In this document: one piece after another, positions 11,025 to 62,989 of the stretch
How positions within the stretch are numbered: position 1 is the first letter of the stretch
Layout of the letters: each line of letters opens with the position of its first letter
IMG/VR virus record: IMGVR_UViG_3300045988_027877
Span: 32,001 to 96,000 of that record
DNA from: a virus
DNA length: 64,000 nt
Strand: one strand, 5' to 3'
Position numbers and translations under genes: made by a program
The notes under the pieces: generated by a model
The model's database searches: none
Told to the model about the DNA's origin: nothing
What the model saw: only the letters and a program-made list of their open reading frames with translations

Positions 11025-11300
11025 ATGAAATATATAGTAGTACCAGCTGAAGAGCTGATTGACATAACACAAGAAACATTAGATGAATTACATTTAGTAT
11101 TTCGTTATAGTGTAGATGGAACTAAAGTAATAATGAAAGTTGCTAACTATGAATTACTATTCCCATCAATAATGACTTTACCATTAACAGATGAAGATGA
11201 AGTTACAGAAGTAGTATATCCTTATCCTACTTATGAAGGTGACGCATTGGAAGAACTGTTAAACAGTGATGAATGGACTAATAAAGAAGAACAACTATGA
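11025..11300 (+). CDS. Small acidic hypothetical protein
   Basis: 91-aa ORF with no TAG. TGA 11298-11300 overlaps the next ATG (ATGA). Confidence 0.5.
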   Translation: MKYIVVPAEELIDITQETLDELHLVFRYSVDGTKVIMKVANYELLFPSIMTLPLTDEDEVTEVVYPYPTYEGDALEELLNSDEWTNKEEQL

Positions 11301-11827
11301 GAGAAACTATAAATTTCGTACCTAGTAAGTCAACCCCCAATCACAAAGAAGTACAGTATTGGATAGACTTACAAACTGATCCATATGGTAGATGTATTAA
11401 AACATGGACTGGATCTGAATGGAGTACTATTACTGATAATGATTTGATTGAGACTATTTAGAAAGAACTAGACAGTAAAGCTAATAAAGCCACTACTCTA
11501 TCTGGTTATGGTATTTCTGATGCATATACTAAAACTCAAGTAGATGCTAAAGTAGCATCAGTATATAGAGTGAAAGGTTCTGTAGCTAATTTCGAAGCAC
11601 TACCTGCTACAGCTGTAGTTGGTGATGTATATAACTTAACAGATACTGGAGCTAACTATGTATGTATTGTAGCTAATCCTGCTGAATGGGATAAGTTATC
11701 TGAAACAGTAGACCTTAGTCATTGTGTAGCTTCAGATGATGTATCTAATGTAGTTGCTATGACTCAAGCTGAATATGAAGCTCTACAGACTAAAGATTCT
11801 AAAACACTTTATTTAATTCACGAATAA
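11297..11827 (+). CDS. Short tail-fibre-like protein
   Basis: ATG 11297, one in-frame TAG at 11459, TAA 11825-11827. Contains ...KANKATTLSGYGISDAYTKTQVDAKVASVY..., a motif I recall from phage tail-fibre proteins. Confidence 0.5.
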
Positions 11828-11828
11828 T

Positions 11829-13070
11829 ATGAAACTAGGAGATAGAAATATTATAGCTGCATACTTAGGTGATGTGAACGTATTCACTAATTACTATGGC
11901 GTCAGCTTTCCTCTTGAACCTCAGAATACTATTCTAACTAGAACAGGTTATATGCCTTGGCATAAAGAACTACCTATACAGTCTAAGATGAAGTCTTGCA
12001 CGATTACTTCTGATGGAACAGTTAAATATCTTAGTGTTACAGATAGAACCAAGTATGAAGATGGTACTGATAGAGACATGACATTAAATACTATGGTAGA
12101 AATACCAGAGTTCTGGTATAAATGTATGAGAGATGATACTACTGTATATTTGAACTTATATCCAGCAGATCCTCATATTCCAGAAGCTGAACATGTGGAG
12201 AAGTTCTATATTTCTGCATATGAAGCATCTAATGTAGATAATGTGTTAAAATCTATTAACAATGGATCTATTACTCCAGTAGTAAACATTAATAGAACTA
12301 CTATGCAATCTAGAGCTAGGGCTAATAACTCCAGTACTACGAATTGGAACATGTATACTTACAGAGCTCATAGAATACTTACTGTGCTTTACTTAGTTGA
12401 ATATGCATGTACCAACAGTTAGAAAGCTTTCAATGCCGAATTAACTGCAGAAGGATATCATCAAGGAGGATTAGGAGATGGAGTTACTACAGGTAATATT
12501 AAAGTAAATGGAGTTGATACATGGAGTTTTATACCTTGTGGAAGTACAGACGAACATGGAAACTCTACTGGTATAACTTCCGTTACTGTTAATAGTACTG
12601 ACGCAGAAGGTGTTGCAACTCAGAAATCTTATAATGTTCCTACTTATAGAGGTATTGAGAATCCATTTGGTCATGTATGGAAAAATTGTATAGACACACT
12701 TGTACATTTTAATGCACAAACTAATAAAAATGACGTTTATATAAATACCGACTTAAGTACATTTGGATCTACTGATATATCTGATTATGACTATCAATGT
12801 AGTACTACTATTACTGAAGGTTATAAGAAGAAATTGGTATACAATGCAGCATTTGACATACTTCCTCCAATAGATGAAGCATTTGGTGGTAGTACTACAA
12901 CTTATTGGTGTGACTACAATTGGACTAATAATAGTACAACTGATAGGCTAACATTAATAGGCGGTCGTGCTGGTTCTGGCGCGGCTGCTGGGTTGCTCTC
13001 TGTTTATTCTGCCGATGGGCTTGGCGCTGCTCATGCTGGTGTCGGTACTCGGTTAATCTATATACCGTAA
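11829..13070 (+). CDS. DGR target (variable) protein, C-type-lectin/FGE-like fold, probable receptor-binding protein
   Basis: ATG 11829, one in-frame TAG at 12420, TAA 13068-13070. Contains YRGIENPFGHVWKN. The C-terminal 31 codons are the VR (IGGRAGSGAAAGLLSVYSADGLGAAHAGVGT). Confidence 0.85.
12958..13050 (+). repeat. DGR variable repeat (VR)
   Basis: Ungapped 93-nt alignment to 13107-13199. All 60 non-A template positions are identical. 28 mismatches occur, all opposite template adenines. Confidence 0.9.
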
Positions 13071-13106
13071 TTTAATTAAAAATATAGATAGGTTGTTCCT
13101 CATCAT

Positions 13107-13199
13107 TAAGCAGTAATGCTAGTAATAGCACGAATGCTAGGTTACTCAATGTTAATTCTAACAATGAGCTTAGCAATGCTAATGCTAATGTCAGTACAC
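13107..13199 (+). repeat. DGR template repeat (TR)
   Basis: Non-coding copy 36 nt after the target stop. Rich in AAT/AGY codons in the VR frame (LSSNASNSTNARLLNVNSNNELSNANANVST). 33 adenines, 28 of them changed in VR. Both repeats are followed by ...CCGTAA. Confidence 0.9.
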
Positions 13200-13328
13200 T
13201 GAATCCGTAATTAAACAAATAAAGAAATTAAGAGACTGTAGAGGGAGACCTTACCCCTTGGTAAAAGATAACATACTAATTAACTGTGTTAGTAACTTTT
13301 TTCGTGAAAACTCGGTAATGGATTACAG

Positions 13329-14354
13329 ATGAAAAGATATAATAATTTATTTGACAAAATAGTAACTTTAGACAATTTATATCTAGCGGATAAAAGAGCT
13401 AGAAGACAAAAACAACATAGACCTGAAATAATTAATTTTGATAAGAATAGAGAAAAATTACTTTTAGATCTATAGAAGAAATTAATAGATGGTGAATATA
13501 AGACTTCTGAATATTATATATTCAAGATATATGAACCTAAAGAAAGAGAAATATTCAAGCTTCCATACTATCCAGATAGAATAGTACATCATGCTATTAT
13601 GAATATTATGGAACCTATTTGGATATCATCCTTCATTAAAGGAACTTATAGTTGTATAAAAAATCGTGGTATACATAAAGCTCTGAAAGATGTTAAGTTC
13701 GCACTGAAAGATGAAGTCAATACAAAGTACTGTCTTAAGTTAGATGTCAGAAAATTTTATCCTTCAATAGATCATGATATATTAAAATAGCTAATAAGAA
13801 GAAAAGTAAAAGATAAGAAATTATTAATTATATTAGATGAAATAATAGATTCTGCATAGGGAGTACCAATTGGTAATTACTTATCACAATTCTTTGCTAA
13901 TTTATATTTAACATATCTAGATCACTGGATTAAAGAAGAGAAACATATAAAATACTATTTCAGGTACGCAGACGATATAGTAATATTAGGAAAAGACAAA
14001 GAAGAACTACGTCAGTTGTTCAAAGACATGAAAGAGTATATTGAAACTAAACTCAATATAAAGTTTAAAGACAATTGGCAGATATTCAAAGTAGATTCTA
14101 GAGGAATAGACTTTGTAGGATATAGAGTATATCACACTCATGTTCTTCTAAGGAAAACTATTAAGAAGAACTTCTGTAGAAAGATCAGTAAATTAAACAG
14201 AAGAGACGATCTTAGTAAGAGTGAATACAAATAGAAGATCTGTAGTTATATAGGTTGGATTAAATATTGTAATGGTAAGAATCTTTTAAGTAAAATGACA
14301 AAACATAAAGAGCTATTGGAATACATTAATACAAGTAAACGTAAGAGAACCTAA
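13329..14354 (+). CDS. DGR-type reverse transcriptase
   Basis: ATG 13329 to TAA 14352-14354 with four in-frame TAGs (13473, 13788, 13857, 14232). Motifs: YYPDRIVHHAIMN, LKLDVRKFYPSIDH, GVPIGNYLSQFFANLYL (DGR-RT hallmark), RYADDIVILG (YxDD). Confidence 0.9.
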
Positions 14355-46675: not shown

Positions 46676-47179
46676 TTAGCACTCTTCTGGCATGTCTTCG
46701 AAGGGATCTTCGATAACATCACCAAAAGGGATGACGGATTTTATTTCGTGAAATTCATTAGTAAACAATACACTTGGCAAATTAGTACGAATACCATTAA
46801 ATAGCTCAAGTGTCTTACTCATTTCGGATTTACTTAGTTCTGCGGGTCCACCGCTGATTAGTATATCTCTACGAGTTTTAATTTCTTTAGGTAAAGTAAA
46901 TACAGCTATTTCATACCACTGGTCATTTATTCGAATCTGACGTAGACTATGAAAATACTTATTCTTTCTTAGCTCGTATTGAAGATTCAACAATGCTTTT
47001 ATTGTTGTTTCTCTATACATTACAAATAAGTTATCACAGAAATAAGGTTCATCTGGATAATCTGTATATACATTTACAAGATTTTCGTTTACTAACTTCT
47101 TATTGTCTATCACTAAGTGCAACAAACAAGCTGTTGCTTCATTTAAGTTCTTCAGTTCCATTATTCTCGTAATATTCAC
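46676..47179 (-). CDS. Hypothetical protein
   Basis: 167-aa uninterrupted ORF with TAA stop. The 5' end overlaps the upstream gene, so the start may be internal. Confidence 0.5.
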   Translation of the reverse strand: MNITRIMELKNLNEATACLLHLVIDNKKLVNENLVNVYTDYPDEPYFCDNLFVMYRETTIKALLNLQYELRKNKYFHSLRQIRINDQWYEIAVFTLPKEIKTRRDILISGGPAELSKSEMSKTLELFNGIRTNLPSVLFTNEFHEIKSVIPFGDVIEDPFEDMPEEC

Positions 47180-48113
47180 GAGTATGGTCCCAATTTCCTG
47201 TCTGATAATGATATGATATTTCTGTCAACGCTTCTGATATTAGGTCTTTACGGGCCAATAACTCTTGTTCGTTTAACATGTTAAATACGCGTATCTCATT
47301 ATTACCATTACTTTGGATAGCAATGATATACGCTTCAAGATCATAGTCTTCTATATCGTAACCTTCCTCTTTCATATACCAAGTAAGAGCAAGTATATAG
47401 AAGGCTATTTGTCTATAATAATCATACTCTTCTACAGAGTGTTTGAAGTTATAGACATCAGCAGTTGTTTTCAGGTCAATGAGTACAATTTTACGTTCTG
47501 CATGATCAATTTTAACTCTATCTAGCAGTGATTTACACATGACCTGTTGTTTCTCGGCTTCCCAGTTGATATGAAATTCATTATGGCATTCAATACCAGG
47601 CTGGTTTTCAAGCAACTCTTTTGCTTTAATGTGATTATATATATTCTCTTTAATGCGTTTTAGCATTGTAAGATCTGCGAATGATATAATCTTATACGTT
47701 TGATTCTTATCTAAGAACTCAATGTATTCAGCAAATTTGAGTTGTAATTCTTTTGCTTTTTTCAGTATAGCATCTTTTGACATATTATTGCCAGAGTAAG
47801 ATGCTTTGTACGCATTTATAAGTTTATCTTCTTCTAGTATTTCAGTAGAATTGAAGTAAGCTTCACAGAAAGCTAACTGTTGAGTTGTCTTGGGTTTCTC
47901 ATAATCAATTATCATATAATTCTCCCAAAACTCTTCAGGTTGAAGTAGATACATGTGAATCATAGTTCCCTTATCAAGATACTTACCACTAATACCTTCT
48001 TCTTTACCATCAAGCATATCCTTGAGGTATCGCGGTCCTTTCTTTAAGAACCACCCGATTGCTGAATTTGATATTCGCGTGTTATCTTCATAATACGGAA
48101 TCTCTATTTTCAT
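47139..48113 (-). CDS. PD-(D/E)XK nuclease (RecB/Cas4-like exonuclease family)
   Basis: 324-aa ORF. ...KIVLIDLKTTADVYNFKHSVEEYDYYRQIAFY... matches the D-x(n)-(D/E)LK core followed by the QxxxY motif of this family. Confidence 0.6.
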   Translation of the reverse strand: MKIEIPYYEDNTRISNSAIGWFLKKGPRYLKDMLDGKEEGISGKYLDKGTMIHMYLLQPEEFWENYMIIDYEKPKTTQQLAFCEAYFNSTEILEEDKLINAYKASYSGNNMSKDAILKKAKELQLKFAEYIEFLDKNQTYKIISFADLTMLKRIKENIYNHIKAKELLENQPGIECHNEFHINWEAEKQQVMCKSLLDRVKIDHAERKIVLIDLKTTADVYNFKHSVEEYDYYRQIAFYILALTWYMKEEGYDIEDYDLEAYIIAIQSNGNNEIRVFNMLNEQELLARKDLISEALTEISYHYQTGNWDHTREYYENNGTEELK

Positions 48114-48217
48114 GCTGCTAAATATAAATCGGTTTCAACTTCCATGTTTGTATTCCATGGGATCTCGTCTTCTATATCCTGACGGATATGTTTAGACATC
48201 TTGTATATGACTATCAT
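48110..48217 (-). CDS. Possible 35-aa ORF filling the gap
   Basis: ATG 48217 to TGA 48110-48112, which overlaps the downstream ATG (ATGA). No other support. Confidence 0.2.
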   Translation of the reverse strand: MIVIYKMSKHIRQDIEDEIPWNTNMEVETDLYLAA

Positions 48218-48234
48218 TAGAAATAAAATCATAA

Positions 48235-49119
48235 TTAAAGTGGATTCAAAATCTTATTCTCCATTATTTCGATACATACTTCATCCATATCAGATGACTG
48301 TGTATCATCCTGAGTAGATACTTTGTTCTCTTCTTTTATTTTTTCAGTAGAAATATTCATATCTTTAACTATTTGAGTTAAAGGCATGTCTTCAAAGAGA
48401 ACAACTTCATCTAAGAATGCAGAAATATTATCAAATGATTTTACTTTCATATATTCGTTAATGAAGTTCACAACTTCATCTATATTCTTAACTCCCTTAT
48501 CTTCTGCCATATAGCGTACAAATACCGAGTTAGAATTAGCTTCATACTGTTTGAAATAACGAACACGTGAGCATCTATCGAAGAAGTTTTCGTCTATCTT
48601 TTCTGCTCTATTACAAGTCATTAATACAAGTTTCTTTGCTGTTGACTCTACTCCATCTAAGAATCCTAATAGATCCTTAGTTTCCCACCAATAATCGTTC
48701 TTCTCAATCTCATCAAACATGATTACTACAGGAGTAGTAAAGTTTTTGAAGAACGCACTTAGTTTATCAGCAGGATAGTCAGTTGCAACAACAATAATAG
48801 GTAGATTACTTTCTAAGGCAATACGTTTAGAGAGCATTGTTTTGCCTGTACCTTTAGTACCAGCAAGTAATACACCTGTTGTTTGGTTAGAACTTTCAGA
48901 ATTGAAATAAGTAAGCACACGGTTAATAAAGTTATTATCCTCATCTAGCTTATACAGTTTCTTTGGCATATTCAAATCACCATTTTCTACTAAATAAGAT
49001 TTTCCTTCCATACGATTGTACTTCAGATCATATACTTTACCTTTAATAAGTTCATATGCTAATCCTTCTAACTTTGGTTTAACTGTGATCTCATTACCTA
49101 CTTTAATAAATTCTGCCAT
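48235..49119 (-). CDS. AAA+ ATPase
   Basis: GVLLAGTKGTGKTMLSKRIA (Walker A) and VVIMFDEIEK (Walker B). Confidence 0.7.
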   Translation of the reverse strand: MAEFIKVGNEITVKPKLEGLAYELIKGKVYDLKYNRMEGKSYLVENGDLNMPKKLYKLDEDNNFINRVLTYFNSESSNQTTGVLLAGTKGTGKTMLSKRIALESNLPIIVVATDYPADKLSAFFKNFTTPVVIMFDEIEKNDYWWETKDLLGFLDGVESTAKKLVLMTCNRAEKIDENFFDRCSRVRYFKQYEANSNSVFVRYMAEDKGVKNIDEVVNFINEYMKVKSFDNISAFLDEVVLFEDMPLTQIVKDMNISTEKIKEENKVSTQDDTQSSDMDEVCIEIMENKILNPL

Positions 49120-49130
49120 AACTTCTGTTT

Positions 49131-49508
49131 TTATGTTTTTAGTTTGTCGATTAACTCATCGACTTGTTTCTACGTATGTACAACATAGAACGCTGTTTTA
49201 GGTTCATGTGTGTACAAATAATAGTTAAATAACTTTTCACGCAAAGGCCACGCCTCATTAGGGAAGCCTTTACATTCAATCACGAAACCTTTACCAACAA
49301 AGTCTGGTAAATAGGTCATCGGTCTGTATCTTTTGTTTCCAAAAGTAAAAGCTGGAAGAAGTTCGTATCTGTGCTGCTCATAGTCTGCCTAGATCTTTGC
49401 TTCTTTCAGCTTTTTATATGTATAAGTTTCCAGTTTACTTCGGAATTTTATTCCATCGTATTCATTAGGAGTTGCGTTTCTTACTTTTCCAGTCTTCTAT
49501 TTTTTCAT
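49131..49508 (-). CDS. DUF1064-like / Holliday-junction-resolvase-like nuclease with three in-frame TAG codons
   Basis: Minus-strand ATG 49508 to TAA 49131-49133. TAGs at 49497-49499, 49389-49391 and 49170-49172. Translation: MKK(Q)KTGKVRNATPNEYDGIKFRSKLETYTYKKLKEAKI(Q)ADYEQHRYELLPAFTFGNKRYRPMTYLPDFVGKGFVIECKGFPNEAWPLREKLFNYYLYTHEPKTAFYVVHT(Q)KQVDELIDKLKT. The K..N..T..DGI.F.S..E and Y.PDF...IE.KG patterns match the family as I recall it. Confidence 0.55.
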
Positions 49509-49815
49509 AAAAGAATTCTTTAATATAAAATATTATATTATCTATTTTCCACCATAACTTCTTATAAAAAGGAGTTTTACGTAAGTCATCTTCGATGCGC
49601 TTATAATATTCTTCTTCTGAAAAAGTAAGTAATGCTATATACATGTCGTCCCGTTCACTACTACATGTAGTGCACCAGTCGATAATATCTTTCTCTTCCC
49701 ACATATCTTGACGAATCACGACATCTGGGTCCTTTTCATCTTCTTCTAAGAAACGATTATTTTGAAATTCTTCTCTATAATTTTCAAGAAGTTCGATAAG
49801 TTTAGATAACTTCAT
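49465..49815 (-). CDS. Hypothetical protein
   Basis: 116-aa ORF with TAA stop. Confidence 0.5.
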   Translation of the reverse strand: MKLSKLIELLENYREEFQNNRFLEEDEKDPDVVIRQDMWEEKDIIDWCTTCSSERDDMYIALLTFSEEEYYKRIEDDLRKTPFYKKLWWKIDNIIFYIKEFFYEKIEDWKSKKRNS

Positions 49816-49816
49816 G

Positions 49817-50782
49817 CTATAATTGTTTTGTTAACCAGTTCTTTACTTTTTCAAATCCATTAGCTTTAATAGCATCAGATATATCTTTTGCTTTAAATCT
49901 TTTATGGACTAGCATACCTTCTAAGCCTGTTTTTTGGCTCATTTTACGGAGATATTTCACTCCAGCTTCATCTCTATCAAACATTATAATAATACGTTTA
50001 AAGCGCTTCTTTAGGTGCTCTAAGACATCATTCGGAATAAATGTTGATTCAGATGAAGGTGAAATGGCAGGTATTCCCATTTCATATAGACACATGACAT
50101 CCTTCATACTCTTAGTAATTATTAGGATATCACCTTTCTTTGGTAGTTGCTTATAACCTTGAATATCATATTCAGTAAGGTTATTACGCCACTTTGTATA
50201 TTTATCTGCTAAAGGTTTATATATCTTAAAATGATTATAAACCTTATAAGCATACATTGGATTATCTTCTTTATAAATGCTTTTTACTATGCCATTACAT
50301 AGGTAGTACTTTATACTACTTACTCCAAATTTTTTTAGAGTTTCTACCGTAATATTAAACTGCTTCCAGTAATTGATATCAGTTTCAGTGAATTCCTGAC
50401 GTACAACACCAATTACTGTTTCAGTTGACGGTATGTGTTGCTTAGAGCTAACTAATTGCGTATCATTAGTAATCTTAAGTCTACTTACTATATCTTTAAG
50501 TATATCTGAATAGTTAGTAATGCCTGTGTAAAGCTCTATGAACTTTATTACATTACCACATTCTCCAGTGCCATGATCTTTGAAGAGTAATTGCTTAGTC
50601 TTCCTACTATAAAAACAACCAAATGATGGTGTTTTATCTTTCCTTAAAGGAGAGTTATAGATCATGCCTACTTTAAAATTACCTATATACGCAGCATATA
50701 TATCATATTCTGTTACTCTAGCTAATATCCATTCTAGAGTAATACCAAAATTGTCTTTTACTTTACTTGTATCGTAAACCAT
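49817..50782 (-). CDS. DNA primase (Toprim domain)
   Basis: 321-aa ORF. ...ILIITKSMKDVMCLYEMGIPAISPSSE...IIIMFDRDEAGVKYL (E ... DxD Toprim). Ends in TAG 49817-49819, with TAA 4 codons later. Confidence 0.65.
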   Translation of the reverse strand: MVYDTSKVKDNFGITLEWILARVTEYDIYAAYIGNFKVGMIYNSPLRKDKTPSFGCFYSRKTKQLLFKDHGTGECGNVIKFIELYTGITNYSDILKDIVSRLKITNDTQLVSSKQHIPSTETVIGVVRQEFTETDINYWKQFNITVETLKKFGVSSIKYYLCNGIVKSIYKEDNPMYAYKVYNHFKIYKPLADKYTKWRNNLTEYDIQGYKQLPKKGDILIITKSMKDVMCLYEMGIPAISPSSESTFIPNDVLEHLKKRFKRIIIMFDRDEAGVKYLRKMSQKTGLEGMLVHKRFKAKDISDAIKANGFEKVKNWLTKQL

Positions 50783-50798
50783 GATATATAATTATTTG

Positions 50799-50897
50799 TG
50801 AAGGGAGTCAGATTCGAACTGACATCTGTAACTTCTCCTACAAGCTACTGTATTAGACCTAGATAAGGGCGCCCCTATCGTGTTATACTATCCCAAC
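50799..50897 (-). ncRNA. tRNA-like element (99 nt) with canonical T arm, imperfect acceptor and a 28-nt insertion
   Basis: Minus strand: GTTGGGA-TA-GTAT-AACACG-ATAG-[28 nt incl. GGGCGCCC]-AGCTT-GTAGGAG-AAGTT-ACAGAT-GTCAG-TTCGAAT-CTGAC-TCCCTTC-A. Acceptor stem pairs 5 of 7. The 3' end is 16 nt upstream of the primase ATG. Confidence 0.35.
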
Positions 50898-50904
50898 TTA
50901 TCAA

Positions 50905-50942
50905 ACGTGAGTACTTTCGTTAGACTCTACTTGTACTCACGT
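50905..50942. repeat. Perfect 10-bp inverted repeat with 18-nt loop
   Basis: ACGTGAGTAC (50905-50914) pairs with GTACTCACGT (50933-50942). Confidence 0.6.
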
Positions 50943-50984
50943 ATTCCTAGCTTAAGCCCTAGGTGGCAGCTGTTTTAAGTACGA

Positions 50985-51611
50985 TTAGAACGGCAGATCG
51001 TCTGCTGGATCATTACCTACAGACAATTCATCTACTTTAGTCTCTTTATCGGCAATTACTGGTTTAGTAAACATGTCGATAGAGAGTTTCGTAATCATAC
51101 TTTTATTTTCTGGATTTGTCTCTTTATCATAGAACCCTTCTGGAATATCCATAGGTTCAATTACTGCATAAGAAACATATGAAGGTAAGGTTGTGTAACC
51201 TTTCTCATTATAAGTAACCTTCAATTTCAACAAGATATTCTTATTAGCAGCATTTAGCATAGCAATAGCCCAATCGGAGAACTCCTTATAGCTATTACCA
51301 TTGAAGTTAATCAATTCTTTTGGATAGAAACATTTCAGTACACGCATAATACGTGTTACCTGATTAGTAATCTTACTTTGACTTTGTTCTTCAGTCTCTT
51401 CAGGTTTAATGTTTGGTTCCCATTCAGTATGTAACAATTCCTTTCCGTCTTTTTCAAAACGGAGCTCCATAAAGTTTTTACCAGTAGGAGAGGTCGCAGC
51501 TCTCGCACCAGTGAATTTCACATTATCGTGTATACCAGCTTCGAGAAACTTGCTATTCTTGTTACTATCTGTTATTACTATCTTGCTTGCTAATTCTGTA
51601 CTGTAAATCAT
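50985..51611 (-). CDS. ssb: Single-stranded DNA-binding protein
   Basis: C-terminus ...VGNDPADDLPF matches the acidic DDxPF tail of SSBs. I prefer ATG 51611 (MIYSTELASK...) because the longer ORF-track start overlaps the upstream gene. Confidence 0.6.
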   Translation of the reverse strand: MIYSTELASKIVITDSNKNSKFLEAGIHDNVKFTGARAATSPTGKNFMELRFEKDGKELLHTEWEPNIKPEETEEQSQSKITNQVTRIMRVLKCFYPKELINFNGNSYKEFSDWAIAMLNAANKNILLKLKVTYNEKGYTTLPSYVSYAVIEPMDIPEGFYDKETNPENKSMITKLSIDMFTKPVIADKETKVDELSVGNDPADDLPF

Positions 51612-51630
51612 AATTTCTTTGTTTTGTATG

Positions 51631-52374
51631 TTATTCTTCAGGTAAGAAAATACGATCCATATGGAACGTAATATTGTTATCTTCGTCACTTTCAGCAACG
51701 ACTATGTTCTTACCTCTTAGATGTGGTGCTCTTGCTTCTCTTACTATGTTACTACCACCTTCAAATGAAATGATAGTTTCGTTTTTCTTACGATAGACAT
51801 ATCCAATAGCATCTGCTTCACCACAGATAATGTCTCCTAATCTACCAGTAAGATCAAGTGTCATTTCTGACATTTCTTGTCCTTCTACATTTATCTGTTT
51901 ATCTCTCGTATGAGCAATCAATATAAGATGATCACTTAGATCTCTGAACAAGTCGATTACCTTCTTCACAGCCATTCTAAGCCACATATAGCCACTACCA
52001 TTAGGTAGAGTACGAATGTCTGTTCCTTGATAATTTTTTCCTTGATTCGTACTTTTATAAAGCTGTATGGCATAACCCATACATATCTCCTCTAGTCGAG
52101 TTGCATTATCTATAGTAATATACTTATACGGTTTCTTACCCGTACGACTAATCTCTTCTTTAATTGCTGTAACAATATCTCCAAAATCCTTTACAGATCT
52201 TGCTTGAATAACTAAAGCAGATAAAGCCTGGTAACCGTTTTCCAGGTCGATAATCAGATTGTTCTCTAGGGCTGCCATAAGACAGGATTTACCTGCCTTA
52301 GGCTTTCCATAGAAAACGGCAAACTTAGGATTACATACCTTTGCTTCGGTTTTTTCTTTTGGTAATACAATCAT
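51631..52374 (-). CDS. RecA-like ATPase of the AAA_24 / Sak4-like family
   Basis: FAVFYGKPKAGKSCLMAAL (Walker A) and DHLILIAHTRDK (Walker B-like strand). Confidence 0.55.
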   Translation of the reverse strand: MIVLPKEKTEAKVCNPKFAVFYGKPKAGKSCLMAALENNLIIDLENGYQALSALVIQARSVKDFGDIVTAIKEEISRTGKKPYKYITIDNATRLEEICMGYAIQLYKSTNQGKNYQGTDIRTLPNGSGYMWLRMAVKKVIDLFRDLSDHLILIAHTRDKQINVEGQEMSEMTLDLTGRLGDIICGEADAIGYVYRKKNETIISFEGGSNIVREARAPHLRGKNIVVAESDEDNNITFHMDRIFLPEE

Positions 52375-52454
52375 AAAGCTAATTTATTTCTTGTATTCCG
52401 CGTTTCTGGTAAACTCTGACAAATTCTGATAAGTACGGAATCTTAATATCTTAT

Positions 52455-52880
52455 TTAGAACAAACCACTATTCTTCAACTTAATTGTGATGTCGATAATG
52501 GTTTTCTTTGTTTTCGGTTTTAGGTGATTCAGAGAACCCGGTGTAATAGGAATTACATCGTAGCCAATCTGAACGAAATTATCGAAGATACGAATCGGAG
52601 TACCGAACTCGTCTTCAAAGTCATAGTCTTTAGCTGTTACACTAAGAGCGCTCATGAATTTGAAGAACTCATCCTCCAAGTCGCTAATATTAAACGGACA
52701 TTTTGTTCCAGCAGGGCAAGAAATTGTATCTAGATAATAGTAATCAAAGATCTCTTTGTCTTCTTTCTTTTTACCCAGCCAAGGATAAGCGTTCAATATT
52801 TTATCAGCAAGAATGTTCTTGTTGTTAAAAGCACTAGTATTGTTTTTCTTCGGTAATGTAAATGAATATTTTGTAATCAT
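52455..52880 (-). CDS. Hypothetical protein
   Basis: 141-aa ORF with TAA stop. Confidence 0.5.
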   Translation of the reverse strand: MITKYSFTLPKKNNTSAFNNKNILADKILNAYPWLGKKKEDKEIFDYYYLDTISCPAGTKCPFNISDLEDEFFKFMSALSVTAKDYDFEDEFGTPIRIFDNFVQIGYDVIPITPGSLNHLKPKTKKTIIDITIKLKNSGLF

Positions 52881-52905
52881 AATTTTCAGCCTTTAATTGT
52901 TATTA

Positions 52906-53868
52906 CTAAAACGAAATCTTCTTTGCAGGTTCCGTATTCTTTAGCGTTTCAATTAAATTATTGTATTTTAAATCATTGTCAAACTCTAGAATTGCACATT
53001 CTCCAGCATCTCTATTCTTTAAGATGTGGAGATATACCTTATTCTTAACTAGTAGACGATTTGGTCCATACTGCTGTATATTGAGCAATTCTGGTCTGTG
53101 AATACAGATAACGTAATCTGACGCGTGAAATATAGTATCCGCAGAAGAAATATCACTACGCATTGGATAATGCATAGATGGATTGTTAATCCTATCAGGA
53201 GCCTCAATGTTTCGGTTCATCTGTGATAACTGGATTATAGTAGTATTAGGGTACTTTTTAACCCTAATAAACAGTTTCTGTAAATCCGAAATCACTTTCA
53301 GTGCAGATTCTTGACCTTCTACAAGCAAGGTATGGTCTAGGATAATAATAAATTTCTTATCCTTAGCATAATTCTCATAGAAGTAATCAATAGTAGAAGC
53401 TATTTCTCCAACCGTCCCAGGTGTATCTACATAATATATCTGGTATGATTTTATCTGTTGAGATGCTTTCTCAACTTCTGCTAATGTTTCATCTGCAAGA
53501 TCTCCATTAGCGCTGTATAGCTGTGCAGTAGTTTGCCTTAACTTACTACTTAATTTTCTACCTACCTGCCTTGAACTTAACATCTCAAATGAGAAGTTAA
53601 GCACGACGACATCCTGATCTGGATTTAGGTCTATCAAATCAGTTTCTAACGTATTAACAAATGATGATTTACCACTACCTGATATACCTACTATAGTATA
53701 TATCGTATTCGGTTCAATACCACCCATACAATGTGTATTGAACTTATTCCATCTTGTCTTAAGAGATTGAATCTGATGATTCTTTCTCTCTCTGATATAC
53801 TCTACTGCTTCATTAGCAGCAGTAGAGATATGACGGAAAGTAAGTGTATTAGTAGAGTTCTGTTCCAT
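52906..53868 (-). CDS. DnaB-like replicative helicase (RecA-fold C-terminal domain)
   Basis: IYTIVGISGSGKSSFVNTL (Walker A), FIIILDHTLLV (Walker B), IIQLSQMNR. The stop is TAG 52906-52908, immediately followed by TAA TAA. Confidence 0.7.
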   Translation of the reverse strand: MEQNSTNTLTFRHISTAANEAVEYIRERKNHQIQSLKTRWNKFNTHCMGGIEPNTIYTIVGISGSGKSSFVNTLETDLIDLNPDQDVVVLNFSFEMLSSRQVGRKLSSKLRQTTAQLYSANGDLADETLAEVEKASQQIKSYQIYYVDTPGTVGEIASTIDYFYENYAKDKKFIIILDHTLLVEGQESALKVISDLQKLFIRVKKYPNTTIIQLSQMNRNIEAPDRINNPSMHYPMRSDISSADTIFHASDYVICIHRPELLNIQQYGPNRLLVKNKVYLHILKNRDAGECAILEFDNDLKYNNLIETLKNTEPAKKISF

Positions 53869-54415
53869 AACTATTACTAATTACAGGTTCCTCTACTTTC
53901 ATTTGCTCCTCGTAGGTTTCCCACTCGTGTTGAGTGAGCCATTTCCACATAGTTTTCATATAACCTATTTTACCGGTTAGCATTTTATTATCTATCTCGA
54001 AAGATAAACAATTCATTATATGCTGATGCATAGCTCTGCTTTTACCGACTATTCGATTATACTCTTTCCTACATTTGTTTACATTAGCCCTTAAGAAACC
54101 TTTAGTTCCATCAGGTCTTATAACATAAACTGGAAATAGGTCATAGAATTCATCAAACATAGATTTATCTTCTTTTAGAAGTTCCTCTAGTTTTGCTGTT
54201 TTCTTTATGACTGTGGTATCGTCTACAGTGCTGGTAGCGATTAAACCACGAGATTCTAACTCTTGTATCTCTTCTTCATTAACTAGGCTGAGAAGTTTCT
54301 GAATGTCTTGATTGATGTTTTTGAAATCACTCAATACAAGTGTTAGGAATACTAGCTGATTAATAGATAAATTTTCAATCCTGTCAAGGATTGAGGTGTC
54401 TATTTCTAAAATCAT
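53849..54415 (-). CDS. Hypothetical protein (helicase-loader/replication-organiser position)
   Basis: 188-aa ORF overlapping the helicase start by 20 nt. Confidence 0.45.
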   Translation of the reverse strand: MILEIDTSILDRIENLSINQLVFLTLVLSDFKNINQDIQKLLSLVNEEEIQELESRGLIATSTVDDTTVIKKTAKLEELLKEDKSMFDEFYDLFPVYVIRPDGTKGFLRANVNKCRKEYNRIVGKSRAMHQHIMNCLSFEIDNKMLTGKIGYMKTMWKWLTQHEWETYEEQMKVEEPVISNSYGTELY

Positions 54416-54470
54416 AGTCTCATATATTATATGAGCTTACGGTTTCTGAAATTATCTGATAAAGCCTCTG

Positions 54471-56450
54471 TTAATCCCATAGGCTCATTTGTAACGGTTT
54501 CAGTTCTCTGATTATCTTATAGGCTTCCATAATGTAATACCTATAATTAATCTTTCTCTCTTCTATTGGTTTATCATCTAAGTAATTTAATAAAGTAACA
54601 CCAGATGCAGTAAGCATATTCTGATACTGCCTTTCTTTGGCTGTATATCTTTGTGTGCCTACATAAGGTACATCGTATTCAACGATTTCACCCTCTTTAT
54701 AACCTGTTGGTTTCCATTTCCATAAGTAAGCACCATTAGTACTTGCATAGAAACGATTAGTTCTCTGTTGTTCTTTATTATTATACTCAACATGCCATTG
54801 TTTACCAGTCTTTTCAGACATTAGAAAGTCTCTAATATCTTGGCAACCTTTTATAGTTTCCTCTACTGGCACTCCGTTCTTAAAAAAGTTTATTACTGCT
54901 TTCGGTATGATCTTCGGAGTTAGACCTTTTCCTAATTTTACAGTAGTAATAAACATACCTTTCTCTTTTACTGAATCATCTTCAGCAATAGCGAAATAGT
55001 CATTTATAGCATATTGATACATGGCTTTGAAACGTTCTTCCTCAAGTGTTAGCTTAGTAAGTTGTTCCCAATCACGACAAACTTTGTTTACTTTAGAATA
55101 TACATCTTTCTTAAGTAAGACGAATAAACCATCAGTATTTGCCTGGACGATTCGACATCCTAGTTGGGTAAGTTTCTCTGCTAGCATTAGTAATAGTAAC
55201 TGTCCATTTATTCTAATTTGCATTACAGCAAATGGACTATAACAGAAATTATGTTCATTCTGTAAGTTACCTGATAAACCATTAAGAGCTAGCTTTAAGG
55301 TTTCATTCTTAACCTTATTGCCATTGTGTTTTGCTTCGATACGCTCATCTTTAATCTGCTTATATACTTCTAGGAATTCAGGACCTAAGTGTTTAGGATA
55401 GAATTCATATTCTATTAGCATACTTGGATATAGAGATGCAACATCTATATCAATGAGCAACTCGTCTTCTTTCGGAATTATTATTTCTGGCTTATTCACT
55501 GAATGAATGCCACCAACTCCTACAGAATACTGTAATCCTTCAAATACGAATTTGTTTTCATATCCTTTTCTTCCAGGAGATACTATCTGACTTTTCATAT
55601 CAGCTAGTACTTTTTGAAGTACAGGACTATCGTACTTAATAAATGGTAATATAACAGCATTTAACGGTATTACAGACATAGGAGATCTTAAATCTTTAAT
55701 ATCCCACCATGTTTGTCCTGTCTTTTCCAGATACTTCTGGGTTAGGATCTTCATACCAATGTTTACACCATCTTTACTAAGTACTCTTACTCCGTATTCG
55801 TCTTCGATAGCGATCCTAAGATCAATATCTTTTTTGCATCTATTGAGTAACTCTTCAGTAGAATTAACATCATTAATATTATACTCAATCATTGAGTCTA
55901 TTTGACTTTCAGGCAAATCAGCCTGCCAGTCTGTAACAAATTCCTGTACATTTTTGTACTGCATTGTTACTTGAATCTCTTTCAAACCTACTCTTAACTT
56001 ATTACTATATAACATAGTAAGTAAATCAAAAGAATCGAAACAAACCATATATTTCCACTTCTTCCAAGCGTTGATATCATCTTCACTTGAATCAGTGATT
56101 ACTTTACTTAGGTTAAATATAGACCTACATATAGTTCTATAACCTTTGTATTTCATAGTATTATAATAATCTATTATATAGTTTATAATAGCATTATCAT
56201 AATGAAGATTATTATATCCACAGAATAGTTTATCAGTATTAAACTGAATATCTGTAGTATAAAGATCTCCGAATGTATGATTTGTATTTATAGTATGAAA
56301 GAACTCTACGAGCTCATCTAATTGATTGCTTCTGCAAGATATTTCAAATTTATGTAACTCACCTGTTTCTGTATTTTTTACAGTACAATGAAAGACATTG
56401 GGGAATACCTCAATATCATATACATAAACAATCTTATCTCGTATAATCAT
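54471..56450 (-). CDS. Family-B DNA polymerase
   Basis: 659-aa ORF. VYVYDIEVFPN (Exo I), IDVASLYPSMLIEY (motif A, DxxSLYPS), KLALNGLSGN (motif B-like), VQANTDGLFV (motif C). Confidence 0.8.
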   Translation of the reverse strand: MIIRDKIVYVYDIEVFPNVFHCTVKNTETGELHKFEISCRSNQLDELVEFFHTINTNHTFGDLYTTDIQFNTDKLFCGYNNLHYDNAIINYIIDYYNTMKYKGYRTICRSIFNLSKVITDSSEDDINAWKKWKYMVCFDSFDLLTMLYSNKLRVGLKEIQVTMQYKNVQEFVTDWQADLPESQIDSMIEYNINDVNSTEELLNRCKKDIDLRIAIEDEYGVRVLSKDGVNIGMKILTQKYLEKTGQTWWDIKDLRSPMSVIPLNAVILPFIKYDSPVLQKVLADMKSQIVSPGRKGYENKFVFEGLQYSVGVGGIHSVNKPEIIIPKEDELLIDIDVASLYPSMLIEYEFYPKHLGPEFLEVYKQIKDERIEAKHNGNKVKNETLKLALNGLSGNLQNEHNFCYSPFAVMQIRINGQLLLLMLAEKLTQLGCRIVQANTDGLFVLLKKDVYSKVNKVCRDWEQLTKLTLEEERFKAMYQYAINDYFAIAEDDSVKEKGMFITTVKLGKGLTPKIIPKAVINFFKNGVPVEETIKGCQDIRDFLMSEKTGKQWHVEYNNKEQQRTNRFYASTNGAYLWKWKPTGYKEGEIVEYDVPYVGTQRYTAKERQYQNMLTASGVTLLNYLDDKPIEERKINYRYYIMEAYKIIRELKPLQMSLWD

Positions 56451-56470
56451 AGTTAATGGTGTTAAGTTTG

Positions 56471-56529
56471 TTCCCCTGGTCGGACTCGAACCGACATTTA
56501 GGAATTTTAGCCATTTAAACTACAGGGGT
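56471..56529 (-). ncRNA. tRNA-like element (59 nt) lacking an anticodon arm
   Basis: Minus strand: ACCCCTG-TA-GTTT-AAATGGCT-AAAA-TTCCTAAAT-GTCGG-TTCGAGT-CCGAC-CAGGGGA-A. U8, A14, G18G19 and the T-loop are canonical. Only 9 nt occupy the place of the anticodon arm plus variable loop. The 3' end is 20 nt upstream of the polymerase ATG. Confidence 0.45.
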
Positions 56530-56592
56530 TCCAGCGTATTACCGCATGATTACATTTTTTTAATTATGAAAAATTTAATTCGCAGGCAAAGT

Positions 56593-57219
56593 TTAGGCGG
56601 CCTGCTTAGCCTGTTTCATTGAATAGATTTTTGCTGTGCTATTGCGTGCAAAACCTCTATTCTTCTTGTGACGCCCAGTTCCTTTTTCAGGACATCTAGT
56701 GTTTCCTACCTTGTATGTACGAACATACTTGGTCTTAAACTCTACAAGGGAAGCTTTATACTTAGCCTTGTCTTCTTTACTCTGTTTTCTAGCTATTGCT
56801 CTGTCAAGCTTAGCTGTAAGCACAATAGTATGCTTAATAGCATCTATGTCTTTATGCTTTAATCCATGCTTAATTGCTTTAGTAAGCATAGCTTCTTTCG
56901 CTTTGAGTATGAGAGCCTTTCTATGAGCTTTCTTTGCTTTTCTGCGTTCTTTCAGCTCATCACAGTAAAAGTCTTTAGGTTGAAAGTCAATCTTTGCAGA
57001 TCGCTCACGAGCTTCACGAATTCTAGCATTTCTTTCTTCTTTCCATTTCTTAGGAACGATAGGTTTCTTTCCTGCTTTTTCGCGAGCTTCAGCTTCTTCA
57101 GCAGATATTAACATCTTGCATCCTTGCAAACTTCTTCTGTCGGCTTTCCAGATGTTTCTTAACTCAATTCTCTTTTTGCTACGAGCTATTTTATATTGCT
57201 TATTATTCTTGTCCATCAT
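56593..57219 (-). CDS. Highly basic Lys/Arg-rich protein
   Basis: 208-aa ORF dominated by K/R/A/E runs (e.g. KERRKAKKAHRKALILKAKEA). Confidence 0.55.
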   Translation of the reverse strand: MMDKNNKQYKIARSKKRIELRNIWKADRRSLQGCKMLISAEEAEAREKAGKKPIVPKKWKEERNARIREARERSAKIDFQPKDFYCDELKERRKAKKAHRKALILKAKEAMLTKAIKHGLKHKDIDAIKHTIVLTAKLDRAIARKQSKEDKAKYKASLVEFKTKYVRTYKVGNTRCPEKGTGRHKKNRGFARNSTAKIYSMKQAKQAA

Positions 57220-57236
57220 ATCTTGATAATATTAAT

Positions 57237-57244
57237 AGTTAATA
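57237..57244 (-). promoter_or_regulatory. TATTAACT motif 17 nt upstream of ATG 57219
   Basis: Minus strand: gtTATTAACTattaatattatcaagatATG. Confidence 0.3.
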
Positions 57245-57245
57245 A

Positions 57246-57908
57246 CTATGCTGCAAGCAGCTTTGACCTAGTATAATAAGTTATACTATTGTCTCCTTCC
57301 ATATCATAAACGGTAACACCAGTAAAAGAGGAATCCTTTTCAAATTTCTTAGCTTCTTTTACTGCTAATTTGAAAGCGTCTTCTTTAGAAGTAGCTTCAA
57401 AATAGTCGGTCTTGAAATCGTATACTCTGTGATCTTCTATAGTTTGTACTACTGCTGGTACAATCTTTTCAGGTCTCTTTCGTTGAATTACGTATTTAAA
57501 TTTACGTTTATTCACTTCCTCTTCGGAAGGAATTACAACTTCTTTCTTAGCAAATAGATTCTTTTTTACAGTACGAGTGAATTTCTTCTTCTCTTTTCTT
57601 GTATACTTAATAGTAGGATCGAAGCCAGCACTAGCTAAGATCTGTTTAATACGATCTTTCTTAGCTTGTTTAGCTGTTTTATTCTCTTGTCTTGCATTTT
57701 TACCTATATCTGTTGTGTAGCTCTTCTGGCTAACTTTTCCAACGATATTAGTAATACTGACTTTCCCATCTTCTCCTTTAGTAATAAAGGGTGACGGACC
57801 CGGACTTCTAAATACTACTTCTGTCTTCTTTGAACGACGTAGTTTAGAACGGTTAGTTCTGGATAATTTTACTCCAGTTCTCTTATGTTGTACTTTCTGC
57901 TTTTTCAT
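57246..57908 (-). CDS. Second basic Lys/Arg-rich protein
   Basis: 220-aa ORF. Ends in TAG 57246-57248, with the next in-frame stop (TGA) 9 codons later. Confidence 0.55.
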   Translation of the reverse strand: MKKQKVQHKRTGVKLSRTNRSKLRRSKKTEVVFRSPGPSPFITKGEDGKVSITNIVGKVSQKSYTTDIGKNARQENKTAKQAKKDRIKQILASAGFDPTIKYTRKEKKKFTRTVKKNLFAKKEVVIPSEEEVNKRKFKYVIQRKRPEKIVPAVVQTIEDHRVYDFKTDYFEATSKEDAFKLAVKEAKKFEKDSSFTGVTVYDMEGDNSITYYTRSKLLAA

Positions 57909-57924
57909 CTTGATAATGTTTAAT

Positions 57925-57932
57925 AGTTAATA
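57925..57932 (-). promoter_or_regulatory. TATTAACT motif 16 nt upstream of ATG 57908
   Basis: Minus strand: agTATTAACTattaaacattatcaagATG, directly after hairpin 57936-57953. Confidence 0.3.
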
Positions 57933-57935
57933 CTA

Positions 57936-57953
57936 GTGAGCCCGAAGGCTCAC
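57936..57953 (-). terminator. Hairpin with UUCG tetraloop between two early genes
   Basis: Minus strand: GTGAGCC-TTCG-GGCTCAC, 5 nt after the stop of 57959-58468. No T-run. Confidence 0.4.
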
Positions 57954-57958
57954 ATTTA

Positions 57959-58468
57959 TTATGCCGCTAGGCAAATTGGTGCAGACTCTATATCTAGTTC
58001 TGCTTTTTCGTTGAAATCTACTAAATCTTTTGTTAATTTATTGATCTCTAGCTGAAGCTTATTCTTCAACGTACCAATAAAGGCAGAAGTAAGCTCTTCT
58101 GTATTATTGAGCGCTTTCTTACCCTTAGCACGTTTAAGCTTCGGATCAATTGTTTTAATTCGATTTAAATGGTTTAATTGTTCTTGTTTCTCTGAAAGTG
58201 AAAATATCGTAATGTAATTATTATCATTAGACAATTCTGAAAACTTCTTGTATCCCATGTTAATACACTGTAGATACAACTTCATAAGGAAACGTTCTTC
58301 AGCCATCTCTTGGATCTTAGTAAGTAATACTTTAAGATCATAGTTTCGCTTTGCTTCCTTAGAAATAACGTTTTCAATCTGTATTATGTGCCAATACTTA
58401 GTTATATCTTTACTAAGATTGTAAATACGTTCTTTTGCATATTTAGATGTAATTGATTTCATATTCAA
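57959..58468 (-). CDS. Hypothetical protein
   Basis: 169-aa ORF with TAA stop. Confidence 0.5.
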   Translation of the reverse strand: MNMKSITSKYAKERIYNLSKDITKYWHIIQIENVISKEAKRNYDLKVLLTKIQEMAEERFLMKLYLQCINMGYKKFSELSNDNNYITIFSLSEKQEQLNHLNRIKTIDPKLKRAKGKKALNNTEELTSAFIGTLKNKLQLEINKLTKDLVDFNEKAELDIESAPICLAA

Positions 58469-58484
58469 GTGATTTGTTTTTTTA

Positions 58485-58492
58485 AGTTAATA
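58485..58492 (-). promoter_or_regulatory. TATTAACT motif 16 nt upstream of ATG 58468
   Basis: Minus strand: agTATTAACTtaaaaaaacaaatcacttgaatATG. Confidence 0.3.
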
Positions 58493-58519
58493 CTCAACCA
58501 AATTACGTCTACTAGTTAG

Positions 58520-58584
58520 TCATGCATGAGAGGATCAAACTCCCGTCTCTCTAAAGAGCGCTCTAATCACTAAGCTAATGCATG
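58520..58584 (-). ncRNA. tRNA-like element (65 nt) with truncated anticodon arm
   Basis: Minus strand: CATGCAT-TA-GCTT-AGTGATTA-GAGC-G-CTCT-TTAG-AGAG-AC-GGGAG-TTTGATC-CTCTC-ATGCATG-A. It has a perfect 7-bp acceptor stem, a D arm and a T arm. The central arm is only a 4-bp stem with a tetraloop. Confidence 0.4.
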
Positions 58585-58681
58585 GGATTGAAACTGCCCA
58601 GTTCAGCAGTCTCTATTTTGTTGTAGTACCCCATTCAGTACTATAACAAAGAGATTAATTGACAAGTGTCCAGTTCAACAC

Positions 58682-59242
58682 TTATTCGTCAATTATAACT
58701 GTTTTACCAAGATAGCACGGTAATACCCGTCCATCTTCTAGTCTAATACCTATAAAGCCCCGAGGACCTTCAGTCATCTTAACTTTTCGGTTGTGCCCTT
58801 TCTCATCTGCATACTTTTGTAAATACTTTTCATTGATATACTTAGAGTGTAACTCCCCGTTCGGACTACACCGTAAGTTATCAAATAAGATGTCTACTAT
58901 ACAGTCGAGATCATTATTATCTTCAGCTTCCTTAAGTATGGCTTTCATCATGCCATAGAAAGCTTCTTCATTTTTTGCTTCTCCAGAGCCAGACATTATG
59001 CTTGCTGCTTTGATTGCGATATCCGTGATACTCACCGATCCATGAGTATTAAAGAATCGTTGCAACCATTTCGGACCTGAACCATAATATAAGATAACCT
59101 GTCCATTATCTAATATATCTACCTTTTTTGGCTGCTCTTCAAGTCTCCCATTCAATACCTTTACTTTAGCCAAAATAGATGGTTCATATATGATTAGCAT
59201 ACGTAAGAAGTCAACCCGAGAAGGTGACAATCTTCCTATCAT
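58682..59242 (-). CDS. Hypothetical protein
   Basis: 186-aa ORF with TAA stop. Confidence 0.5.
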   Translation of the reverse strand: MIGRLSPSRVDFLRMLIIYEPSILAKVKVLNGRLEEQPKKVDILDNGQVILYYGSGPKWLQRFFNTHGSVSITDIAIKAASIMSGSGEAKNEEAFYGMMKAILKEAEDNNDLDCIVDILFDNLRCSPNGELHSKYINEKYLQKYADEKGHNRKVKMTEGPRGFIGIRLEDGRVLPCYLGKTVIIDE

Positions 59243-59247
59243 AATGT

Positions 59248-59880: not shown

Positions 59881-59943
59881 AAAAATGTTTCCCTTCTTGA
59901 TTCCGTACTTGATATACCATACGGATCATTTTAATGTTTTTTA

Positions 59944-62925: not shown

Positions 62926-62989
62926 ATTGATTATGAGTTAGTGAACAGTTTCTTAAGGTAGTATACGATATTCCACTTAGACGGCGCTG

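Follow-up and report, generated by a model that had tools for sequence, protein, structure and literature searches.

A probable diversity-generating retroelement in the TAG-recoded virion module of a Buchavirus-type phage

Results

Organization of the cassette

The IMG/VR virus record IMGVR_UViG_3300045988_027877 was analysed over 64,000 nucleotides (positions 32,001 to 96,000 of the record), hereafter called the window, which covers 64 kb of a roughly 100-kb genome; the remaining ~36 kb lie outside it. An earlier note, made from the sequence alone, had described a diversity-generating retroelement (DGR) at window positions 11829 to 14354. The locus consists of a target gene that ends in a variable repeat (VR), a template repeat (TR), a structured spacer RNA and a gene for a reverse transcriptase (RT). 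The features, in window coordinates, are as follows.

11829 to 13070, + strand: probable DGR target gene, encoding a 413-aa stand-alone C-terminal tail-fibre (receptor-binding) module; the TAG at 12420-12422 is Gln198
12958 to 13050, + strand: VR, codons 377-407 of the 413-aa target (31 variable-region codons)
12966 to 13039, + strand: hypervariable core of the VR, with ten codons templated by AAY codons of the TR
13051 to 13106, + strand: invariant 3' flank of the VR, resembling an initiation of mutagenic homing (IMH) site, with the target stop codon TAA at 13068-13070, followed by the leader to the TR
13107 to 13199, + strand: TR, non-coding, 35% A, the invariant master copy
13247 to 13335, + strand: structured spacer RNA, Rfam RT-17 (RF03020) and RT-18, overlapping the RT start codon
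13329 to 14354, + strand: DGR-type RT, 341 aa, with TAGs at 13473-13475, 13788-13790, 13857-13859 and 14232-14234 read as Gln
11297 to 11827, + strand: 176-aa phage tail tip domain protein (context only), Pfam PF24243 Phage_tail_C, E = 1.5e-11

The TR begins 36 nt after the target stop codon. The motifs PIGNYLSQFFANLYL, YADD and YRGIENPFGHVWKN were confirmed in the cassette gene products, and consensus scans for promoters and terminators gave nothing above shuffled expectation.

VR and TR differ only at template adenines

The two repeats form an ungapped 93-nt alignment with a constant offset of 149 nt. Of the 33 adenines in the TR, 28 are substituted in the VR (17 by G, 7 by C and 4 by T), whereas none of the 60 other TR positions differs. 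Finding all 28 mismatches on the 33 adenines has a hypergeometric probability of 5e-19, and such an adenine-only pattern cannot arise by ordinary divergence. Every coordinate and count given for this pair in the earlier note proved correct, and re-alignment yielded no mismatch at a non-adenine position. Past positions 13050 and 13199 the VR and TR sequences diverge.

Read in the VR frame, the TR contains ten AAT/AAC codons, seven AGC/AGT codons and a few others, as had been claimed, and no stop codon can be reached from these codons by substitution of adenines. The TR itself has a stop in this frame and is therefore not translated. The peptide currently encoded by the VR is IGGRAGSGAAAGLLSVYSADGLGAAHAGVGT. 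No further VR was found in the 64-kb window, where the next-best match to the non-adenine positions of the TR has 29 mismatches.

The reverse transcriptase groups with DGR enzymes

The RT matches Pfam RVT_1 (E = 3e-17) and PHROG 1423 (E = 3e-121). Its best match among solved structures is, by far, 8ub7_A (328 aa, E = 1e-52), with group II intron and retron RTs at 2e-19 or worse. We take 8ub7_A to be the Bordetella DGR RT (bRT), judging by its length of 328 aa and its Arg74 and Ile181; a literature search for the PDB code 8UB7 gave no match. The window RT retains the equivalents of both residues, together with PIGNYLSQ, an instance of the GxxxSQ motif, and YADD. In the Bordetella phage enzyme, the variants R74N and I181N lower adenine mutagenesis (bioRxiv 10.1101/2025.03.24.644984). 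Furthermore, the window RT is 54% identical (E = 5e-119) to the DGR RT of crAssphage LMMB, which its authors placed in DGR lineage 3, with the usual layout of target, TR and RT without avd (PMC7290462). These sequence comparisons place the window RT in the DGR clade, in agreement with the earlier claim of a DGR-type enzyme from its GxxxSQ and YADD motifs.

VR variation across related genomes

To follow the cassette across genomes, 79 loci with relatives of the target were taken from IMG/VR, making 84 with the RefSeq loci and the window. An adenine-only TR/VR pair of at least 40 nt is present in 76 of the 84 loci. The TR is identical in 12 genomes, namely the window and 11 other loci, and differs at two bases in one more locus. 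The VRs of the genomes that share the window TR are all different except for one identical pair (L019 and L020). Among the 13 VRs with the same or a near-identical TR, variation occurs at 24 of the 33 positions templated by adenine and at 2 of the 60 others, and the mean pairwise difference is 16% in the VR versus 1.8% in the 300 nt upstream. At the protein level, 117 homologues that are 93-96% identical to the window protein have an entropy of ~3 bits at exactly the ten AAY-templated codons and ~0.05 elsewhere.

Confinement of variation to the TR adenines, which the earlier note had proposed to look for in mapped reads, was thus found in its between-sample form. Identical TRs accompanied by different VRs require repeated recent homing, and, to judge from these sequences, the DGR is apparently working.

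Several loci depart from the common arrangement. The genomes with a window-identical TR carry two RT alleles, ~97% (L007, L010, L015, L018-L021) and ~89% (L008, L009, L012-L014) identical to the window RT and with differing C-terminal ends, which suggests recombination inside the cassette. In L055-L058 and L066, a clear adenine-only TR/VR pair is present and no RT was found within 3 kb downstream of the target; these ~98-kb genomes may encode it elsewhere or may have lost it. In cr109_1 (L004, 6040-6320), the RT-17 spacer and nearly the whole RT are gone. The deletion fuses AAACAAATAAAG, located after the TR, to AAACATAAAGAG, which lies shortly before the RT gene ends (13217-13228 and 14303-14314 in the window). 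Still present in this genome are the target with its diversified VR, the flank of the VR and a shortened remnant of the TR, in which the adenines appear to be substituted like those of a VR.

The variable region is predicted to lie on a lectin-type fold

The target matches PHROG 5302 'tail protein' (E = 1e-72). Sequence searches gave no fold: Pfam and NCBIfam had no match, and a 12-sequence profile searched against PDB sequences returned only a chance match. A profile search of 1.84 billion representatives defined a target family of 3,202 clusters at 50% identity, in most of which the target module forms the C-terminal ~400 residues of proteins of 400-1600 aa. A second homologue search, made with a profile, recovered the near-identical proteins already known and brought no further diversity.

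An AlphaFold2 (AF2) model was made for P0001, an orthologue 96% identical to the window target. A shallow alignment of few clades (33%-96% identity) gave a predicted local distance difference test score (pLDDT) of 35, and a good model needed a diverse alignment that included the 50%-cluster representatives (pLDDT 89.7, predicted TM-score 0.90). In a Foldseek search of the PDB, the top match of this model was TaqVP, the DGR variable protein of Thermus aquaticus (5vf4, E = 1e-8, probability 1.0, TM 0.45-0.51). It was followed by PvdO, which resembles formylglycine-generating enzyme (FGE; 6e-4), Bordetella Mtd variants (~1e-2) and Treponema TvpA (0.1); the FGE-like domains of EgtB and CalU17 were matched as well. 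Against predicted viral structures, the whole module matched proteins of other crAss-like phages with a TM of 0.85-0.87, and also many 'tail collar fiber proteins'. Because of these matches, the variable region of the target is predicted to lie on a C-type lectin/FGE-like fold, and the model thereby supports the fold that had been claimed. The proposed role as a tail-fibre receptor-binding protein is likewise backed by PHROG 5302, the lectin-type fold and the structural matches to crAss tail (collar) fibres.

Distant relatives carry the homologous target module in fused fibres of ~1300 aa, and the neighbouring 176-aa protein (11297-11827) is similar to the N-terminus of these fibres, as can be seen by eye (…EVQYWIDLQTDPYG… vs …EIDYWVDLSDNPYG…). 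In L059, L062 and others (~40% identical), a single ~1300-aa fibre has this N-terminal motif at one end and the target module at the other. From these sequences, the Buchavirus fibre seems to have been split or shortened into proteins of 176 aa and 413 aa.

TAG is read as glutamine in the late module

BLASTN of the cassette assigns the source phage to Buchavirus (Crassvirales, Suoliviridae, Loutivirinae), with identities of 89% to cr60_1 (NC_055891), 84% to cr52_1 (NC_055888) and 77% to cr56_1 (NC_055890). The match to cr109_1 (NC_055892) is 92% identical and ends at the TR start. When TAG is read as sense, the maximum open reading frame (ORF) of the window grows from 660 to 4465 aa, and the + strand block 161-46623 becomes an unbroken series of large genes, each with many in-frame TAGs. 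In this late (virion) block, in-frame TAG is dense, with up to 32 per gene, and it is almost absent from the - strand replication block 46676-63958. The TAG-rich + block and the TAG-poor - block form the dual-code layout described for recoded crAss-like phages. In cr60_1, a tRNA with anticodon CTA is encoded directly upstream of the terminase gene terL, and the counterpart of this region lies outside the window. The same genome (L084) also has, at 12092-12567, a tmRNA-like gene overlapping tRNA-Leu(TAA), according to ARAGORN and the RefSeq record; this region is outside the window too. TAG-to-Gln recoding is documented in Suoliviridae (PMC10136315), and the data support a cassette located in the late module of a Buchavirus-type phage that reads TAG as Gln (genetic code 15).

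Under the standard code, the RT ORF falls into five pieces and the target into two. With TAG as sense, the RT is full-length in all RT-bearing loci. All 72 related RT genes carry between 1 and 13 in-frame TAGs, and in these columns Gln is what most of the other sequences carry. The four TAGs of the window RT align with Gln in 46, 30, 9 and 25 sequences, and Gln198 of the target, encoded by TAG, is invariant in alignments of relatives that are 33-96% identical. The Gln of the SQ motif is itself encoded by TAG in 34/72 of the RT genes and by a Gln codon in 38/72; the window RT has an ordinary Gln codon here (Gln187, alignment column 187). In those 34 phages, as far as the alignment tells, the RT active site itself would depend on amber suppression.

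The earlier note had counted one in-frame TAG in the target and four in the RT, and had concluded that both proteins need suppression. Both points stand. Its view that this is unusual does not, as in-frame TAG is the general state of the late genes and amber codons inside DGR RT genes have been published for zeta crAss-like phages (PMC12386605). Since the target and RT both need TAG as Gln, the cassette would be expressed only with an amber-suppressor tRNA active, alongside the other late genes. A side effect of recoding can be seen in public protein collections, where P0184 (197 aa) is an N-terminal fragment of the target (window 11829-12422) produced because standard-code gene calling halts at its in-frame TAG. 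For the same reason, DGR finders would overlook both DGR genes.

The spacer RNA, the VR flank and the lack of an Avd-like gene

The spacer between TR and RT matches Rfam RT-17 with 40.8 bits (gathering score 40.4, E = 1e-6), and RT-18 is also matched. An RT-17 motif occurs at the equivalent position in L062 and cr6_1. Across 18 spacer sequences, 80% of the cells are paired, while slid controls reach 34-40%. Both partners have changed in 10 of the 17 pairs, and there is support for helices 1, 3 and 4 but not for helix 2. RNAalifold recovered the first hairpin only, the fuller structure coming from the Rfam model and then from the pair-count test. The RT motifs were described as RNAs of no known role beside RT genes, with RT-10 lying between TR and RT of BPP-1 and others guessed to be DGR-linked (PMC5737381). 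By position and sequence, RT-17 can be assigned as the putative TR-RT spacer RNA of this DGR lineage. We presume, by analogy, that it is the equivalent of the BPP-1 spacer RNA, which positions and primes cDNA synthesis.

Five Buchavirus genomes, among them the RT-less cr109_1, have the same 3' flank of the VR. It contains a weak inverted repeat, ATCTATAT at 13057-13064 and ATATAGAT at 13083-13090, that spans the region of the target stop codon. Its arms persist although the loop varies from 9 to 21 nt, and they show one double compensatory change (ACCTATAT/ATATAGGT). We suggest this inverted repeat as a candidate target-recognition hairpin.

No Avd-like protein was found by Pfam and PHROGs in 15 ORFs, five of them flanking the cassette and ten being further small ORFs of the window. 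A 91-aa ORF at 11025-11300 was considered as Avd and rejected, being acidic, without a match and absent from cr56_1. The 36-nt distance between the target stop codon and the TR and, for the 15 ORFs tested, the lack of Avd thus agree with what had been reported from the sequence. The lack of Avd is not the oddity it was taken for, because cassettes without it have been published for crAss DGRs and lineage 3. An accessory protein, Avd or HRDC, accompanies most DGRs but not all of them. As the absence of Avd is typical of lineage 3 and of crAss DGRs, Avd is not required for membership of the DGRs.

Adenines that precede G are converted to G

The TR adenines fall into two classes. Twenty of them, in ten AAY codons, are hypervariable and show all four bases in the relatives, and about 11 give near-constant differences. 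At the 20 AAY adenines, the window VR has G seven times, C seven times, T three times and A three times, so that 17 of 20 are substituted without an excess of G. The total of 28 substitutions is the top of the range, the relatives having 21-27. At TR positions 3, 6, 15, 21, 24, 33, 38, 61, 66 and 87, the VR carries G in 11-13 of the 13 genomes, whereas all of them have T at position 92 and A at positions 2 and 90. The description of the VR as nearly saturated and G-biased in the earlier note is therefore right as to saturation (28/33), and its G bias is mostly that of the fixed AG-to-GG positions rather than of the hypervariable AAY adenines.

We extended this comparison to 327 AG sites in 56 distinct TR/VR pairs with 27 different TRs. 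At these sites, the VR has G in 96%, A in 3%, and C or T in none (0/327). In five other crAss DGRs, including that of LMMB, 36 of 39 AG sites are G. Together, these comparisons covered the window and loci L001-L083 and L086-L090. The A before G is itself kept in the TR across lineages that are only 38% identical.

One explanation for the constant A-to-G differences is selection on the protein, in which A-to-N mutagenesis would be unbiased and glycine would then be favoured at scaffold positions (AGY Ser to GGY Gly). AG sites are indeed mostly the first positions of AGY codons, where the change gives Gly, and Gly is strongly conserved at those positions. Synonymous third positions, however, follow the same rule: GCA before G becomes GCG in 20/20 cases, TCA and CTA before G likewise end in G, and TTA before C becomes TTG in 31/34 cases, whereas CTA before T varies freely. 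Because AG sites become G also where the codon meaning is unchanged, glycine selection alone cannot explain the constant Gs. The complete lack of C and T at AG sites and the same preference in the five other crAss DGRs also speak against it, as does the chance of ~1e-6 or less of obtaining ~10 Gs per homing. In addition, a template +1 G 'strongly biases' the Bordetella RT to A-to-G, yet lowers its error rate (bioRxiv 10.1101/2025.03.24.644984). We consider glycine selection unlikely as the source of this pattern.

The direction of the AG-to-GG bias fits the reported +1 G bias, but its near-completeness in natural VRs does not. We tentatively propose that AAY adenines would be randomised and AG adenines converted to G almost deterministically. 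This could occur by an RT-intrinsic rule far stronger than that of the Bordetella RT, or by an additional step, for example TR RNA editing or heteroduplex repair specific for G.T. In the same proposal, the RT would function without Avd, on the RT-17 RNA alone, and would become active only once the amber-suppressor tRNA is made, late in infection. This combined account is possible, and we hold it at less than even odds. As causes of the AG-to-GG pattern, A-to-I editing of the TR RNA and G.T repair are possible but not needed given the published context bias of the RT.

Discussion

A model of diversification

Taken together, the locus is best explained as a compact DGR with the order target-VR, TR, spacer RNA and RT, without an Avd gene, located in the TAG-recoded late module of a Buchavirus-type phage and diversifying the tip of a tail fibre. 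We assign this reading a probability of roughly 0.93. The RT match, the adenine-only mismatches, the predicted fold, the VR variation across genomes and the reading of TAG as Gln all support it, and they uphold the core of what had been proposed from the sequence.

By analogy with BPP-1, the RT would bind a transcript that spans the TR and the structured RT-17 spacer and would copy it into cDNA, with C, G and U copied faithfully and misincorporation opposite adenine. The cDNA would then take the place of the 3'-terminal VR of the tail-fibre gene. Homing would receive its direction from the fact that VR and TR are not identical at their 3' ends, perhaps together with the small hairpin after the VR. 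This would randomise ten AAY-templated codons, which lie on the ligand-binding face of the C-type lectin/FGE-like domain, and keep the scaffold, with adenines before G coming out as G nearly every time. For the phage, the outcome would be many receptor-binding variants.

Several points weigh against this picture. The BPP-1 RT needs Avd, whereas the window shows no Avd-like gene; the gene for a partner could lie in the host genome or in the ~36 kb that the window does not cover. No tRNA genes are present in the window, and so no suppressor tRNA is found there. The loss of the RT in cr109_1 indicates that the cassette is dispensable. The AF2 model describes P0001 and not the window protein itself. 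The hairpin after the VR has a folding energy no better than that of shuffles (z = -0.9), and its role is tentative because this energy is weak. Finally, activity is judged from sequence differences between genomes rather than within one population.

A fossil DGR, in which the RT would be a pseudogene broken by four stops and the differences between VR and TR frozen relics, is very improbable. It would account for the five pieces of the RT and two of the target under the standard code, for the close relative cr109_1 that lost its RT and keeps a frozen VR, and for the many incomplete crAss cassettes that have been reported (PMC7290462). Against it, the RT frame is open over 341 codons with TAG as sense, the TAGs alternate with Gln codons at the same columns in all 72 RT genes, and the entire late block is recoded. 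Moreover, identical TRs with different VRs call for homing that is recent and repeated, and a 93-nt repeat pair without a single non-adenine mismatch does not resemble a relic. A retron or group II intron RT beside an unrelated duplication, as might be read from RefSeq notes that label homologues 'Intron reverse transcriptase' or 'retron-type' and from sub-threshold NCBIfam matches to group II, Drt3a and retron models, is refuted by scores far below the cut-offs (for example, 116 vs 300 bits), a DGR RT structure that matches 33 orders of magnitude better than group II RTs, the GxxxSQ motif, the finding of only an RT-17 motif and no intron RNA domain, and an adenine-only mismatch pattern incompatible with ordinary divergence.

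The compact DGR proposed here belongs to a cassette family whose value is that of a clean and very abundant natural data set, with thousands of near-identical proteins that differ only in the VR. Standard-code gene calling breaks both DGR genes of recoded phages, with the consequence that DGR finders miss them. A TAG-encoded Gln at the catalytic site of the RT would tie diversification to the expression of a suppressor tRNA, and the AG-to-GG signature bears on nucleotide choice by DGR RTs and on TR design for directed evolution.

Comparison with known systems

The closest relatives of the window cassette are in RefSeq. The genomes cr52_1, cr60_1 and cr56_1 share its gene order at 77-89% nucleotide identity, and each has its own adenine-only TR/VR pair, with VR sequences that differ from that of the window. 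Their records annotate the target as 'tail protein; similar to sulfatase, major tropism determinant' and the RT as 'Reverse transcriptase', without annotation of TR, VR or DGR. We found no paper that describes the Suoliviridae cassette explicitly as a DGR. DGR RT lineage 3 and the CLec3 class were reportedly defined by Wu et al. in 2018.

Among described systems, the DGR of crAssphage LMMB and other genus I Intestiviridae (Morozova et al. 2020, PMC7290462) likewise has the order target-VR, TR and RT without avd. Such Avd-less cassettes were described there for crAss-like phages and DGR RT lineage 3. The LMMB target is also a tail (collar) fibre with a C-terminal lectin-type VR, its RT is the 54% identical enzyme discussed above, and the same AG-to-GG pattern is found. 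LMMB uses the standard code, in contrast to the window, which belongs to Buchavirus of the Suoliviridae and has a TAG-to-Gln recoded target and RT. The RT has 341 aa in the window and 431 aa in LMMB. The window further differs in that its IMH and IMH* are non-identical and its target is a stand-alone 413-aa module.

The DGRs of zeta and epsilon crAss-like phages (PMC12386605, PMC11054128) resemble the window in their amber codons in the RT, GxxxSQ motif and lectin-type tail-fibre targets, most of them without avd, and their authors note the similarity of the RT to Suoliviridae proteins. These phages form another group with genomes of 145-190 kb, and some zeta phages have Avd and several TRs, unlike the window.

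With the BPP-1 DGR (Mtd, TR, Avd and bRT), which serves as the experimental model, the window shares adenine-specific mutagenesis, a C-terminal VR in a receptor-binding protein of lectin fold, a structured spacer RNA between TR and RT, conserved RT residues tied to adenine mutagenesis, and a bias of +1 G towards A-to-G. It differs from BPP-1 in that no Avd was found, the genetic code is recoded and the spacer is RT-17 rather than RT-10. In addition, AAT rather than AAC codons dominate, and the hairpin after the VR is AT-rich and weak. AG-to-GG conversion is near-complete in the window, whereas +1 G lowers the mutation rate in bRT.

For crAss-like phages, this architecture, the absence of Avd and RT genes with amber codons have all been published before, and near-identical cassettes are present in RefSeq. 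Modestly new are the assignment of RT-17, the TAG-encoded Gln of the SQ motif and the near-deterministic conversion of AG to GG.

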